A stretch of 64,000 bases of DNA from Acidobacteriota bacterium (lineage in GTDB: Bacteria; Acidobacteriota; UBA6911; RPQK01; JAJDTT01), in NCBI GenBank assembly GCA_965217775.1, contig CBDCJH010000002.1, positions 5,920,001 to 5,984,000 of the forward strand, given 5' to 3'. The position numbers were made by a program, and so were the translations under genes. Shown one piece after another: positions 12,070 through 17,331 of the stretch (positions within the stretch are counted from its first letter, which is position 1; each line of letters begins with the position of its first letter). Below the pieces are notes generated by a model. That model was not told where the DNA came from. It saw nothing but the letters and a program-made list of their open reading frames with translations, and did no database searches.

Positions 12070-14841
12070 GTGGGTGAAAAACTCGACCTGAAAGGAACCA
12101 TCAACCTTCCCAGAACCCGTTTCCGGATGAAGGCGAATCTGCCCGTTCTGGAGCCGCGGATTCTAAAAACTTGGGAGGAGTCGGGGATTTACGGGAAGAT
12201 CCGCGAGTCGCGGAAGGGCCGGCCCCTCTTCATCCTTCACGACGGCCCCCCCTACGCCAACGGCCATCTCCACGTGGGACACGCAATGAACAAGATCCTC
12301 AAGGATCTCATTGTCCGTTCCAAGACCATGGAGGGTTACGATTGTCCTTACGTGCCGGGGTGGGACTGCCATGGGCTGCCCATCGAGATCCAGGTCATGA
12401 ACCGAAAGCGGGCCGACCTGGACCCGTTGGAAGTGCGCCGGCGATGCCGCCGGCACGCCGGCAAGTTCGTGCGCATCCAGGGGGAAGAGTTCCGCCGCTT
12501 GGGTGTCACGGGAGATTGGACCGCGCCCTACCTGACCATGAGCCGTTCCTATGAAGCCGAGACGGCTCGGTTCCTGGGTGATTTCGTCCGTCGGGGAAAC
12601 GTTTACAAGGGTCTGAAGCCGGTTCATTGGTGCATTCACTGCGAGACGGCTCTGGCCGAGGCCGAAGTGGAGTATTCGGAACATGTCAGCCCCTCGGTCT
12701 ACGTCCGGTTTCCGGTGACGGGAGGACTTCACGGGGTGGATGTCGGGGCCCGGCCCGTCTCGGTTCTGATCTGGACCACGACCCCTTGGACCCTCCCCGC
12801 CAACCTGGGTCTCTGCTTTCATCCCGACTTCGAATACGCGTTGTTGGAAACCGGGGACGACGTTTTCATCCTGGCTGCCGATCTGGTTCCCCGCGTCTCC
12901 AAAGAGTGTGATTTGGGCGACTATCGGATCCTGGGACGGCTCCGGGGAGCCGCCCTCGGCGGTCTCGAGTGCCGTCACCCATGGATTCCGCGCCGGTCCG
13001 CGGTCGTCTTCGGAAATCACGTCACCCTGGATCAGGGCACCGGAGTGGTTCATACCGCGCCCGGACACGGAGAAGAGGACTACCGTCTGGGGGTCGACAA
13101 CGGTCTCGAGATCTATTGTCCGGTGGATGACTCGGGCCGGTTCCTGCCGGAAGTGGCTCACTTCGGGGGCATGCCCGTGTTCGAGGCCAACCCCTCCATC
13201 AACGGCTTTATGGCCCGGGAAGGCCATCTGGTCCGGGAAGGACCGTTCCGGCACAGCTATCCTCATTGCTGGCGCTGTCACAACCCGGTCATTTTTCGCG
13301 CCACGTCCCAGTGGTTCATCAGTATGGACCGGGAAGACCTGCGCGGCCGGGCGTTGCGCGAGATATCCAGGGTGCGGTGGCTTCCCTCTTGGGGCCGGGA
13401 GCGGATCCACAACATGATCTCCAGCCGGCCCGACTGGTGCATCAGCCGGCAGAGAACCTGGGGCGTTCCAATCGTCGCCTTCTACTGCAAGATCTGCCGG
13501 AAGATCCTCTTGGAGAGCGACATCATCGAACATGTGTCTCAGGTCTTCGAGCGGGAGGGAGCCGACGCCTGGTACCGGAGGCCTGCGCCGGAGCTTCTCC
13601 CGGAAGGCACCCGTTGCGACTGTGGAAGCGAAGAATTCGAGAAAGAAAAAGACATACTGGATGTCTGGTTCGACTCGGGGGTCAGTCATCACGTGCTGCG
13701 GAATACGCCGGGACTCGACTGGCCGGCGGATCTCTACCTGGAGGGTGGAGATCAGTTCCGGGGTTGGTTTCACAGTTCCTTGCTGGTCGGAGTCGGCGTC
13801 AGCGACGGTGCTCCCTACAGGTCGGTCCTGTGCCATGGTTGGACGCTGGATGCCGACGGGAAGGCCATGTCCAAATCCAGAGGCAACGTCATTTCTCCCC
13901 AGGAGATCATCAAGCGGGACGGCGCCGAGATCTTGCGTCTCTGGGTCTCGTCCATCGACTACACCGAAGACGTCCGCCTGGGGGAAGAGATCCTTTCCCG
14001 TCTCCGGGACGCCTACCGCAAGCTGAGAAATACGAGCCGCTTCCTCTTGGGCAACCTTCACGACTTCTCTCCGGAACTGGCGGTCCCGGACGGGGAGCTG
14101 CTGGAGTTGGATCGTTGGGCTCTGGCTCACACCGCCGCCACGGCACGGCGCGTGGAGGAGGCCTACCGGAATTTCGAGTTCCACACCGTCTACCATTCCC
14201 TCTACCACTTCTGTGTGGTGGGGCTTTCCAGCTTTTATCTCGACGTTCTGAAGGATCGCCTCTACGTCTCGGCGGCCGATTCCAGAGAACGAAGGTCGGC
14301 CCAGACGGCCCTGTTCCGGATCGCGGACGCATTGGTTCGGCTGCTGGCTCCGATGCTGCCCTTTACCACAACCCAGATCTGGGAAGAACTTCACGGTCAG
14401 AATCCTCCGGCCGAGTCGGTCCACATGGCCGAGTTCTCCCGGGAACTGGACCGGTATGCGAACCTCGAGCTTCTGGAGCAATGGGAGCCGCTCCTGCAAA
14501 TTCGCAACCAGGTCAGTAAATCACTTGAGGAATGCCGGCAGGAGAAGGTCATCGGGAACTCGTTGGAGGCGACGGTCAGGATCGAGGCCGGTGCGGAGAC
14601 TTACAAGACCCTCAGCCGGTATTCGAAGGATCTGGCCTCCGTCTTCATCGTCTCCGAAGTTGAACTCGGACTGAGAGAGGACATGGCGGCGGATGAGACC
14701 GAGATCAGGGTGACCAGAACCCGGGCGGAGAAATGCGCACGGTGCTGGAATCATAGACGCTCGGTGGGGACCCATGCCGATCTCCCGCAAGTCTGCTCCC
14801 GCTGCCATTTGGTGTTGAAACAGATCGGTGCCCTCAGTTGA
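12070..14841 (+). CDS. ileS: Isoleucyl-tRNA synthetase
   Basis: LHDGPPYANG.LHVGH, GWDCHGLPIE, WTTTPWTLPAN, AMSKS, C-terminal KCARCW...CSRC zinc site; followed by lspA. Confidence 0.98.
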   Translation: MGEKLDLKGTINLPRTRFRMKANLPVLEPRILKTWEESGIYGKIRESRKGRPLFILHDGPPYANGHLHVGHAMNKILKDLIVRSKTMEGYDCPYVPGWDCHGLPIEIQVMNRKRADLDPLEVRRRCRRHAGKFVRIQGEEFRRLGVTGDWTAPYLTMSRSYEAETARFLGDFVRRGNVYKGLKPVHWCIHCETALAEAEVEYSEHVSPSVYVRFPVTGGLHGVDVGARPVSVLIWTTTPWTLPANLGLCFHPDFEYALLETGDDVFILAADLVPRVSKECDLGDYRILGRLRGAALGGLECRHPWIPRRSAVVFGNHVTLDQGTGVVHTAPGHGEEDYRLGVDNGLEIYCPVDDSGRFLPEVAHFGGMPVFEANPSINGFMAREGHLVREGPFRHSYPHCWRCHNPVIFRATSQWFISMDREDLRGRALREISRVRWLPSWGRERIHNMISSRPDWCISRQRTWGVPIVAFYCKICRKILLESDIIEHVSQVFEREGADAWYRRPAPELLPEGTRCDCGSEEFEKEKDILDVWFDSGVSHHVLRNTPGLDWPADLYLEGGDQFRGWFHSSLLVGVGVSDGAPYRSVLCHGWTLDADGKAMSKSRGNVISPQEIIKRDGAEILRLWVSSIDYTEDVRLGEEILSRLRDAYRKLRNTSRFLLGNLHDFSPELAVPDGELLELDRWALAHTAATARRVEEAYRNFEFHTVYHSLYHFCVVGLSSFYLDVLKDRLYVSAADSRERRSAQTALFRIADALVRLLAPMLPFTTTQIWEELHGQNPPAESVHMAEFSRELDRYANLELLEQWEPLLQIRNQVSKSLEECRQEKVIGNSLEATVRIEAGAETYKTLSRYSKDLASVFIVSEVELGLREDMAADETEIRVTRTRAEKCARCWNHRRSVGTHADLPQVCSRCHLVLKQIGALS

Positions 14842-14899
14842 AGTCTGGGATGGTGGGAAACGATTTCTTTCGGAAGCGATTATTGCGCTGGAGAAGACG

Positions 14900-16330
14900 A
14901 TGAAACTCCTGGCGATCGGAGTGGCGGCAGTGGTGCTGGCGCTGGATCTCCTCACCAAGTGGTGGGTCAAGAACACCGCCTGGCTGCACTACTACAAGGT
15001 CATCGACGGATTCTTCACGATCCACTTCGTCCGCAACGAGGGCATTGCATTCGGCTTGTTCCATTCCAATCCATCGGCCTGGAAACCGGTGATCCTTTCT
15101 TTCCTGGCCGTCGCAGCGGCGATCATGGTGCTGTATTACATCTGGACCAGTCCTCCCGGGGAAAGAGGCGTCCAATTGTTTCTGGGGCTTCTGTTGGGAG
15201 GGATCCTGGGGAATTTCTGCGACCGGCTGTCACGTGGGTATGTCGTCGATTTTCTGGAGTTTCATTGGCAGGACCGTTTCGCTTGGCCGACCTTCAATCT
15301 GGCCGATGCCGCAATTACCTGCGGAGTCGCGGCGATTCTCTACCAGGGCTTTTTCGGAACGGGAAGCGGGGACCGGGCCGCGAACCGTCCCCGCCCGAGA
15401 AACTCCGGCACCTTGGGTGCGATTCTTCTGGCAGGTATGCTCTCGGCGCCCCTGCTGGGACAATCGTCCTCCCCCGGGGCGCTGGAAATCGTGGACCGCG
15501 TCCAGGAGCGGTACGAACAGGTCGAAAGCTTCGCCGCCGATTTTCGGCAGGTTTTCCAGTCGCAGGGGGTCTATTTCGAGAGCGACTGGGGAGAGGGGAT
15601 TCTGCTGATGAAGCGCCCTGGAAAGATGTACTGGGAATACCAGCGTCCCACCAGGAAGCTGTTCGTAGCCGACGGCAAACAGACCTTCTTCTACGTCCCC
15701 AGTGAGAATCAGGTGACGATCTCCGATCTGGACCCGGAGACCGCGGATACGCCGCTGCTTTTTCTGCTGGGACCGAAACGGATCCGGGATGATTTCCTGG
15801 TGCAATTCGAGACCGGGGAAGGGCCGTTGGACGAATCCAACCTCCTCCTTCGCTTGACGCCCATTCGGGCCCGGCCTGAATTCAGCTACCTGCTGTTGGA
15901 GTTGTCACCGAAGACTTATCTCATCCAAAGATTGTCCGTAGTCGAGCCTATCGGGAACCGGAACGACTACATCTTCAGCCGTTTCCGGGAGAACGTGAAG
16001 ATTCGAGACAAGCAGTTCCGCCTGGAGTTGCCGGACGGAGTGGAGATCATCCGAATCGGATCGAGCGCCGGTTTCAGGCCGGAGGAAGATCCCGGCCGGT
16101 CTCCCCATCGAAGTCGGCTCGTCACCGGGATGGAGAGGACAGGTACGTTAACAGCCCGTGGTGAAAGTCGTCACGGCATTCGACCGTCCCTGCATCCCGG
16201 CGGACGGCGTTGCTATCGGCTCACATACTCCCGGTATGCTCCCTCATCGCGCCTTGTCCGGCGGGCGCAGGAACGGTCTCGGTGCGCGCGAGACTTTCAC
16301 CACGGACTGTTAAGGAGAGTGCCGATTTGA
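14900..16330 (+). CDS. lspA: Lipoprotein signal peptidase II fused in frame to a LolA-like lipoprotein carrier domain
   Basis: N-part: DLLTK, NEGIAFG, GNFCDRL.RGYVVDF, WPTFNLADAAI. C-part: F.ADFRQ, G.LLMKRPGKMYWEY..P...LFVADGK..FFY.P..NQV, FRLELPDGVEII. No stop between the two parts. Confidence 0.88.
   Translation: MKLLAIGVAAVVLALDLLTKWWVKNTAWLHYYKVIDGFFTIHFVRNEGIAFGLFHSNPSAWKPVILSFLAVAAAIMVLYYIWTSPPGERGVQLFLGLLLGGILGNFCDRLSRGYVVDFLEFHWQDRFAWPTFNLADAAITCGVAAILYQGFFGTGSGDRAANRPRPRNSGTLGAILLAGMLSAPLLGQSSSPGALEIVDRVQERYEQVESFAADFRQVFQSQGVYFESDWGEGILLMKRPGKMYWEYQRPTRKLFVADGKQTFFYVPSENQVTISDLDPETADTPLLFLLGPKRIRDDFLVQFETGEGPLDESNLLLRLTPIRARPEFSYLLLELSPKTYLIQRLSVVEPIGNRNDYIFSRFRENVKIRDKQFRLELPDGVEIIRIGSSAGFRPEEDPGRSPHRSRLVTGMERTGTLTARGESRHGIRPSLHPGGRRCYRLTYSRYAPSSRLVRRAQERSRCARDFHHGLLRRVPI
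16152..16309 (+). mobile_element. MITE family B copy 2 (158 bp), inserted in frame in the lspA-lolA tail
   Basis: TIRs CAGCCCGTGGTGAAAGTC / GACTTTCACCACGGACTG; TTAA duplicated at 16148-16151 and 16310-16313. Confidence 0.92.
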
Positions 16331-17331
16331 GCGAGATTCGGGCGAACATAACGGCCGTGGGGATGTACGTTCCGGAGAAGCGCGTCACGAACCAGGACTT
16401 GAGCCGGGTTCTGGACACTTCCGACCAGTGGATTCGAGAGCGAACCGGGATCTCGGAACGCCGGATTGCCGGCAAGGACGAGGCCAACAGCGACCTCTCG
16501 GTTCGAGCCATCCAAAACGCTTTGGAAGGCACGCCGCATCGCCCTGAAGACATCGACCTCATCATTGTCACCACCGTCACTCCGGACATGATGTTTCCTT
16601 CGACCGCCTGCCGGATCCAGGAAAAGATCGGGGCCAGGAACGCGTGGGGATTCGATCTGTCCGGCGCCTGCTCCGGGTTCCTTTTCGGCCTCTCGACGGC
16701 TGCGCAGTTCATTCGGACGGGAACCCACAAGAAGGTCCTGGTGGTGGGAACCGACGTGATGAGCTCCATCATCGACTTCAAGGACCGGGCCACCTGCGTT
16801 CTCTTCGGAGACGGCGCCGGGGCCGTTCTCCTGGAGCCCACCGAGGAGGAGGAGACGGGCATCCTGGACACGACCCTGGGGTGCGACGGGTCAGGAGGGA
16901 AATTCCTGTTCATGCCCGCCGGAGGGAGTCACCGCCCCGCGAGCCACGAAACCGTGAACAAGCGAATGCACTATGTCCATCAGGACGGCAGGAACGTCTT
17001 CAAGTTCGCGGTCCGGGTCATGTGCCAAACTTCGGTCGGATTGCTCCGGCGAAACGGCATTCCCACCGATGAGCTGTCGCTTTTCGTCCCCCACCAGGCC
17101 AACCTGCGAATCATCAAGTCGTCCATGACGCGCCTGAAATTGAGAGAGGAGCAGGTTGCGGTCAACATCGACCGCTATGCCAACACCACGGCGGCGACCA
17201 TCCCCACCTGTCTGGCCGAAGCTCACCGGCAGGGACGATTGAAGAAGCGGGACAAGATCCTCATGGTCTCCTTCGGAGCGGGATTCACCTGGGGGGGGAT
17301 TCTTCTCGGCTGGGGAATGGATCCGCCTTAG
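16327..17331 (+). CDS. fabH: Beta-ketoacyl-ACP synthase III
   Basis: WIRERTGI, ACSGF (catalytic Cys), LFGDGAGA, PHQAN, ANT, FGAGFTWG; TTG start behind AAGGAG. Confidence 0.96.
   Translation: MSEIRANITAVGMYVPEKRVTNQDLSRVLDTSDQWIRERTGISERRIAGKDEANSDLSVRAIQNALEGTPHRPEDIDLIIVTTVTPDMMFPSTACRIQEKIGARNAWGFDLSGACSGFLFGLSTAAQFIRTGTHKKVLVVGTDVMSSIIDFKDRATCVLFGDGAGAVLLEPTEEEETGILDTTLGCDGSGGKFLFMPAGGSHRPASHETVNKRMHYVHQDGRNVFKFAVRVMCQTSVGLLRRNGIPTDELSLFVPHQANLRIIKSSMTRLKLREEQVAVNIDRYANTTAATIPTCLAEAHRQGRLKKRDKILMVSFGAGFTWGGILLGWGMDPP

Follow-up and report, generated by a model that had tools for sequence, protein, structure and literature searches.

We analyzed a window of 64,000 nucleotides from the genome of an Acidobacteriota bacterium (GenBank assembly GCA_965217775.1, contig CBDCJH010000002.1, forward-strand positions 5,920,001 to 5,984,000). 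A single gene in this window, starting at 14900, encodes the lipoprotein signal peptidase LspA (signal peptidase II) joined in frame to the periplasmic lipoprotein carrier LolA. In model organisms, LspA and LolA are separate proteins encoded by unlinked genes, and they serve two stages of outer-membrane lipoprotein biogenesis. An earlier inspection of the letters alone (the sequence-only reading) had claimed one uninterrupted frame with a complete LspA and a complete LolA. We find that both parts score above the curated cut-offs of their families and that both folds are confirmed. The motifs quoted in that reading are all present, namely GYVVDF (Asp117), FNLAD (Asp136), and the linker RPRPRNSGTLGAILLAGMLSAPLLGQ at residues 163-188. 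Its frame end at 16060 was wrong, since the frame runs 89 codons further to the TGA at 16328-16330. The gene is laid out as follows.

Open from 14828, ATG 14900 to TGA 16328-16330, plus strand: LspA-LolA fusion frame, 476 codons from the ATG (open reading frame list).
14890..14902, plus strand: Shine-Dalgarno-like GGAG (14890-14893) and ATG (14900-14902), read from the sequence.
14900..15355, plus strand: LspA domain, residues 1-152, with four membrane helices, Asp117, and Asp136 (profiles, structure matches).
15356..15412, plus strand: basic n-region of the linker, GTGSGDRAANRPRPRNSGT, residues 153-171, predicted to be cytoplasmic (charge, AlphaFold2 model, LspA topology).
15413..15460, plus strand: hydrophobic segment LGAILLAGMLSAPLLG, residues 172-187, the former h-region of the LolA signal peptide, now internal (junction comparison).
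15461..15493, plus strand: polar c-region and start of mature LolA, residues 188-198 (QSSSPGALEIV; junction comparison).
15494..16060, plus strand: LolA domain, residues 199-387 (TIGR00547, Pfam, PDB, Foldseek).
16061..16330, plus strand: non-conserved C-terminal tail, residues 388-476, and the TGA stop at 16328-16330 (genus alignment).

The ATG at 14900, with the GGAG upstream of it, is the probable start of the fusion gene. Around the lspA-lolA junction, no stop codon occurs in any of the three forward frames.

The LspA half matches Pfam Peptidase_A8 (PF01252) over residues 8-151 (E 8.3e-38; 130.2 bits against a cut-off of 25) and NCBIfam TIGR00077 lspA (113.5 bits against 73.95). Searching the PDB by sequence, it finds 9emz and 5dir at E about 1e-19. 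We built an AlphaFold2 (AF2) model on 76 fused homologues, with a mean predicted local distance difference test score (pLDDT) of 83.7 and a predicted template modeling score (pTM) of 0.53. The model places helices at residues 2-25, 62-83, 89-112, and 134-152 of the LspA half, together with strands, mostly at pLDDT above 85, and Foldseek aligns this half to 5dir_A (E 1.3e-10; TM-score on the target 0.83). D117 and D136 are invariant in 76/76 fused proteins, and so are D16, K20, N46, G48, G104, N105, D108, R109, V115, F132, N133, and A135. These invariant residues match the pattern conserved in Staphylococcus aureus LspA, whose list in the accessible part of PMC6952399 includes Asn106, Asp109, Arg110, Val116, Asp118, Phe132, Asn133, Ala135, and Asp136. 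The same part of that paper gives LspA four transmembrane helices, puts the catalytic dyad close to the outer surface, and has the C-terminal residues reach into the cytoplasm. By all sequence and fold features tested, the LspA half is an ordinary member of its family, and it is predicted to cleave diacylglyceryl-prolipoproteins in a globomycin-sensitive way.

The LolA half is equally regular. It matches Pfam LolA (PF03548) over residues 207-375 (E 1.5e-27; 96.8 bits against a cut-off of 23.6) and the equivalog-level NCBIfam model TIGR00547 lolA over residues 194-384 (124.3 bits against 112), and its sequence finds 2w7q in the PDB at E 3.4e-15. Residues 192-387 are modeled mostly at pLDDT above 85 as a LolA barrel following the four membrane helices, and this half of the model shows the unclosed β-barrel with a helical lid that marks the LolA fold. 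Foldseek returns 2w7q, 4ki3, 8orn, and 6f3z with E values of 1e-15 to 1e-16 and TM-scores on the target of 0.79-0.85. A look-up in the ESM Atlas gave no usable match. The LolA half, too, is by every sequence and fold feature tested an ordinary family member, predicted to take over lipoproteins from LolCDE or LolDF and bring them to the outer membrane.

To see how far the fusion extends, we read 47 lspA-lolA junctions directly (38 + 9) and found 22 fused and 25 split. Left out of this reading were G030 and G039, which have only weak LolA-like matches, and G016, which gave two separate matches and is counted in the genome tallies, with no claim resting on it. In-frame fused junctions lacking a stop were present in 9/9 genomes of the own genus, 6/6 of the sister genus, 4/4 junctions read in family f6, and 3/3 in family f12. 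Performing a class-wide search of 137 genomes, we obtained a match at E <= 1e-20 in 129. Here a match spanning the junction was found in 15/15 genomes of family f1, 3/3 of f12, and 16/16 of f6, where one match carries a stop elsewhere and one is cut by a contig end. Two separate genes in relatives, a finding that the sequence-only reading had set against its own proposal, occur only in other families of the order and not in the genus, the sister genus, or the two further families.

The protein database holds the same architecture. Both Pfam domains are present in 94/112 matches there, a combination that has gone unremarked in the databases. The named fused entries belong to Acidobacteriota metagenome-assembled genomes and are called 'signal peptidase II', and three from JGI are called 'lipoprotein signal peptidase/chaperone LolA'. 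When proteins were clustered at 50%, the best 150 of 23,758 matches included a single fused representative of full length, plus two fragments that span the junction; so few fused representatives indicate that the architecture is confined to a narrow lineage. Two distant matches of this search have other layouts: P0140 (358 residues) carries LspA at 193-337 behind an unassigned N-terminal part, and P0151 (797 residues) carries a LolA domain at 605-793.

Within the genus, 387 codons align without an indel across the nine genomes. The ratio of nonsynonymous to synonymous substitution rates (dN/dS) came to 0.215 in LspA, 0.42 in the linker, and 0.126 in LolA, with 0.25 in residues 191-203. Judged by these ratios, both domains and the linker are under purifying selection. 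In a gene tree of the two domains, made by a quick search with a midpoint root and Shimodaira-Hasegawa-like approximate likelihood ratio (SH-aLRT) support only, the fused entries cluster; two changes are needed in all, the strongly supported branches force one, and 0/500 label shuffles gave a count as low. A single ancient origin of the fusion is possible on this tree.

Public runs also bear out the assembled junction. Contigs of two DNA-type public runs, from two studies, cross it with 0 gaps. A contig of 807 nucleotides from a metatranscriptome library labeled 'sponge metagenome' spans 14906-15712, again with 0 gaps; this attests the junction in an RNA library and does not prove a single translated product. 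DNA and RNA contigs of public runs thus bridge the junction without the indel that the sequence-only reading had named as a possible refutation. The only indels in the public-run contigs lie at 16215-16246, inside a repeat described below.

These data bear on the possibility that the long frame is an artefact, either an assembly or base error or a recent, functionless stop loss in a decaying gene. This assembly is of metagenome type, its contamination estimated at 7.47%, and the 3′ tail of the frame is clearly unselected read-through of spacer and repeat, both of which would fit such an explanation. Against it stand the same in-frame junction in 22 independently assembled genomes of three families, the 94 database proteins with both domains, the purifying selection on both domains and the linker, the gap-free independent contigs, and the invariance of all catalytic and conserved LspA residues. 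A systematic error shared by the fused assemblies is excluded, because their linker sequences differ. We consider an artefact extremely improbable, and we are nearly certain that the fusion is real and vertically inherited.

The split relatives indicate how the fusion could have arisen. The sequence-only reading took lspA and lolA to be normally unlinked, which fails in this lineage, as the two genes lie side by side in almost every genome of the class. In all 25 split relatives, lolA follows lspA directly. In 15 of these, the two frames differ; commonly the lspA stop and the lolA start share the letters ATGA, or tens of bases lie between the genes. The remaining ten have both genes in the same frame with a stop between them (G021, which has three stops, G032, and eight of other families), and several read TAG-ATG. 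The split LolA begins at an ATG of its own and with a classical signal peptide that ends, for example, in AWA/Q, ARA/Q, or AFA/Q. Outside the class, lspA-lolA adjacency was not seen among 80 listed loci from many phyla found by LspA motifs; both domains were present in five of the 80, all of them Acidobacteriota, two fused and three split.

Two kinds of split locus deserve a separate remark. Eight loci (L129-L135 and L137, from G089, G125, G135, G086, G041, G115, G051, and G090) have a single in-frame stop between lspA and lolA and, being in the same frame, are one substitution away from a fusion. At L034 (G032), the spacer between the genes is unusually long at 232 nucleotides, in frame with both genes, and open after the lspA stop codon.

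On these comparisons, the fusion takes no more than that the lspA stop is lost or that an overlap shifts by one base. Since other families of the order have abutting or overlapping separate genes and a LolA signal peptide, we infer that the fusion arose by loss of the lspA stop. The sequence-only reading had held that the functional relatedness of the two proteins argues against a random stop loss. This argument does not hold: with the genes already adjacent, and often overlapping by ATGA or abutting as TAG-ATG, a simple stop loss between neighbors is the probable origin.

We next consider the linker, where the signal peptide of a split LolA would lie. A hydrophobic stretch followed by a polar Ala/Ser/Gly-rich tail is present in 76/76 fused proteins, and 67/76 have a Lys or Arg within 12 residues before the stretch. 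Ahead of the hydrophobic core their net charge averages +1.0, and behind it -0.9, which is what the positive-inside rule requires for a pass from inside to outside. For LolA to reach the periplasm, the linker must cross the membrane once, because the C terminus of LspA is cytoplasmic according to the accessible part of PMC6952399. In layout the linker is an internal n-h-c signal, set between a membrane domain whose C terminus is cytoplasmic and the domain to be exported.

Comparing the segment in 21 fused and 17 split loci, we find the two sets to be similar; the entries are kin, and p-values therefore exaggerate significance. The median apolar run is 18 residues in the fused loci and 15 in the split ones (19 in this genus). 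The median hydrophobicity score KD19 is 1.34 for the fused segments and 1.38 for the split signal peptides, and the median KD9 is 2.43 against 2.73. From the hydrophobic segment to the first LolA helix, the median distance is 11 residues in both. By this comparison, the linker is the former signal peptide of LolA and was not remodeled into a longer anchor. The sequence-only reading had proposed that the linker, with its basic patch and hydrophobic stretch, acts as an internal export signal or an extra membrane pass. This is supported, and both fates it allowed for LolA, tethered and released, stay live.

LolA has no start of its own at the fused loci. An in-frame ATG upstream of the hydrophobic core was found at 0/21 fused loci, as against 13/17 split loci, so LolA can only be made as part of the fusion. 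One codon raises a different idea, in which LolA is mainly a separate product started within the linker at the TTG of Leu172, with the read-through fusion as a tolerated by-product. This codon (window 15413-15415; the same codon at L002-L009) is TTG in 9/9 genomes of the genus while neighboring Leu codons vary, and its place at the N-terminal border of the hydrophobic stretch is about where one would expect an ancestral signal peptide to have had its start codon. A Shine-Dalgarno-like motif, however, precedes it in 0/9 genomes, and in the corresponding span, ATG, GTG, and TTG are all missing from 5/6 loci of the sister genus and 2/3 loci of f12. The basic residues of the signal n-region lie upstream of the TTG, where the positive charge is kept, and without a stop codon, the fusion product is made anyway. 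We therefore regard internal initiation as very unlikely; the TTG may be left over from the start codon of the ancestral lolA.

The rest of the pathway bears on what would become of the LolA half, and we searched this genome for its components. The only LspA and the only LolA above the NCBIfam cut-off in this genome are both in the fusion gene. Lgt is present, as are Lnt (298 bits) and two signal peptidase I genes. LolB (PF03550) had no match in the genome. One LolC/E-like permease (324 bits, cut-off 362) adjoins a LolD (254 bits, cut-off 308), which suggests a homodimeric LolDF-type transporter rather than LolCDE. The pair lies at L042 1495-3385 (G000:C2 about 1406247-1408137; G000 is this genome), directly after lysS, with a single permease gene.

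A second, weaker LolA-like protein of 234 residues is also encoded in this genome. It carries its own non-lipoprotein signal peptide, is thus predicted to be secreted, and scores below the cut-offs (TIGR00547, 46.1 bits against 112; LolA2_flexi, 42 bits). Weak LolA-like counterparts exist in both fused and split relatives. The gene lies at L040 1360-2064 (G000:C2 about 5315260-5315964), beside a divergent ABC ATPase gene.

We propose the following course of events. In an ancestor within this Acidobacteriota order, lspA would have lost its stop in front of the abutting lolA, and from then on every LolA would have come as the C-terminal portion of an LspA-LolA precursor. The four LspA helices would first insert in the inner membrane and leave the C terminus in the cytoplasm. 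The linker, as the old signal peptide of LolA, would then cross the membrane once and export the LolA domain to the periplasm. Finally, signal peptidase I would cut behind the hydrophobic stretch, here near LLG/QSS (residues 185-190), where we place a candidate site after Gly187. The freed, soluble LolA would shuttle lipoproteins from the LolD and LolC/E-like transporter to the outer membrane, and LspA would keep a fifth hydrophobic stub after the cut. With such a two-protein precursor, two steps of the lipoprotein pathway would be bound to 1:1 synthesis and to joint insertion. A canonical LolA, as in the Escherichia coli pathway, can deliver its cargo only after leaving the inner membrane. 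We prefer release by signal peptidase I for this reason and because the segment is still signal-peptide-like. We moderately favor this explanation as a whole, that is, an inherited stop-loss fusion whose LolA is exported through its old signal peptide and released by signal peptidase I.

Several observations weigh against release, or fail to support it. A (-3,-1) small-residue site behind the core occurs, under the strict rule, in 53/76 fused proteins, compared to 53.5 in composition-preserving shuffles, and under the loose rule in 68/76 compared to 69.1; as the observed counts do not exceed those of the shuffles, there is no positional signal for a cleavage site. The best candidate site in the genus, L-L-G/Q, is not a canonical A-x-A. 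KD19 cannot tell the linker from a true membrane helix, since LspA helix 3 scores alike: the linkers of the 76 fused proteins have a median of 1.41, with 16/76 at 1.6 or above, and helix 3 has a median of 1.46. In the AF2 model, residues 155-168 have pLDDT below 50, and the linker forms only a helix of 11 residues (171-181) at low confidence; with this low linker confidence and the pTM of 0.53, the model gives no information on the fate of the linker. Moreover, the RNA contig could come from contaminating DNA and would look the same for an operon.

Several of these points would fit a LolA that is never released. In such a case, an uncleaved fifth membrane helix would keep LolA covalently bound to LspA on the periplasmic side of the inner membrane, as a permanent periplasmic domain of the signal peptidase in an inner-membrane processing-and-hand-off machine. 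LolA would serve locally, as an acceptor or a hand-off station, processing would be coupled to extraction, and onward transfer would fall to another factor, for example, the weak LolA-like paralogue. Consistent with this, the cleavage motif lacks positional enrichment, some linkers are as hydrophobic as noted above with an apolar run of 19 residues in this genus, a second, secreted LolA-like protein exists, and the fusion has persisted across families in which the domains share only about 43-55% identity. On the other side, the segment is neither longer nor more hydrophobic than the split signal peptides, as its lower KD9 shows. With only about 11 residues to the first LolA helix, a tethered LolA would be unable to reach the outer membrane. 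The weak paralogue is present in split genomes as well and so is not a fusion-specific substitute, and AF2 gives no confident or defined packing of LspA against LolA. We judge a permanently attached LolA unlikely, though it keeps a real share of our belief because the motif is not enriched, LLG/Q is not canonical, and the hydrophobicity overlaps that of LspA helix 3.

The remaining features of the locus lie at the two ends of the gene. Upstream is ileS, with its stop at 14839-14841; lspA is found downstream of ileS in many bacteria. At the other end, the tail beyond residue 387 differs across the nine genomes of the genus: it can be as short as 9 or as long as 89 residues, it has large indels, and in three genomes it meets an earlier stop. 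A Pfam scan of the whole 476-residue protein found no family in the tail at E <= 0.1. The TGA at 16328-16330 overlaps the probable TTG start of fabH at 16327 (TTGA), with AAGGAG at 16312-16317. The conserved end of the tail, 'RRVP(I/S)', is, on this evidence, really the ribosome-binding region of fabH. Between lolA and fabH lies one further feature.

16146..16315, no strand assigned: 170-nucleotide, hairpin-forming, high-copy repeat resembling a miniature inverted-repeat transposable element, in the lolA-fabH spacer (depth, copies, folding).

This repeat has terminal inverted repeats and folds into one long hairpin (minimum free energy -96.1 kcal/mol, z -8.4). We found 40 further full-length copies at 91-97% identity in the same genome, from 296 first-look candidates. 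Contig depth over the repeat is 35,000-92,000, compared to roughly 50-210 on either side. Besides this genome, G006 carries the repeat at this site, and most congeners lack it. Rfam has no RNA family in 14500-16800 at E <= 0.01. As no stop occurs there, the tail is spacer and mobile repeat read through, and not a third domain.

The fusion matters in several ways. Kept for long, in three families and with domains only about 43-55% identical, it would serve as a natural 'Rosetta stone' that links two steps of one pathway. If LolA is cut off, the product would be a rare bacterial membrane polyprotein with an internal signal peptide, and a simple natural system for studying signal peptidase I on internal signals. 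Should LolA stay attached, the accepted view of it as a shuttle that diffuses would fail in this lineage, and lipoproteins would transit to the outer membrane without a free canonical LolA, via the weak LolA-like paralogue or another route. Adjacency of lspA and lolA is the rule in this Acidobacteriota class, and lipoprotein trafficking in the phylum is hardly studied. As it stands, the arrangement is of moderate interest; this would become high if LolA proves tethered.

The arrangement, shared by a group of uncultured Acidobacteriota, appears to be undescribed, in agreement with the sequence-only reading, which knew of no such case. Our literature searches found no published LspA-LolA fusion, and supplementary tables of Lol papers may mention such architectures. 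The accessible parts of two papers on Lol evolution and the Lol pathway, PMC9963962 and the review PMC11784454, which describes the pathway, mention neither fusions nor Acidobacteriota.

Known systems offer several comparisons, among them the split lspA-lolA pairs of the sister families in the same order and class. They have the same gene order and orthologous proteins, 42-64% identical per domain. Unlike in the fusion, a stop ends lspA, a gap of 0-60 nucleotides or an ATGA overlap follows, and lolA has its own ATG and signal peptide. Stand-alone LspA proteins of family A8 (5DIR from Pseudomonas aeruginosa; 6RYO and 6RYP from S. aureus) share the four helices, the β-cradle, the Asp dyad, and the conserved residues. 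They end at the cytoplasmic C terminus, whereas the fused LspA continues into the basic-hydrophobic linker and a whole LolA. Stand-alone LolA (1IWL from E. coli; 2W7Q from P. aeruginosa) has the same fold, to which the fused half is an equivalog-level match, and in both an n-h-c export signal stands before the first helix, with the spacing seen in split relatives. The fused LolA differs in that its export signal is internal, behind a four-helix membrane enzyme, in that it has no start codon of its own, and, here, in the long unconserved C-terminal tail behind it.

Two further comparisons concern the fate of the precursor. Functionally, the nearest analogy is FbcH, the cytochrome b-c1 precursor of Bradyrhizobium, for which our literature search found no relevant paper and which is cut at an internal signal. 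It resembles LspA-LolA in joining a polytopic membrane protein, through an internal signal-like segment, to a periplasm-facing partner of the same pathway. The proteins are different ones, and FbcH is processed into two, whereas processing of LspA-LolA is only predicted. LolB (PF03550) would be the likeness if LolA is tethered, as a LolA-type fold held at a membrane; LolB differs in being lipid-anchored in the outer membrane and in forming a separate family. From all these systems, the LspA-LolA protein differs in that its halves are covalently joined and its export signal lies internally; each half by itself is ordinary.

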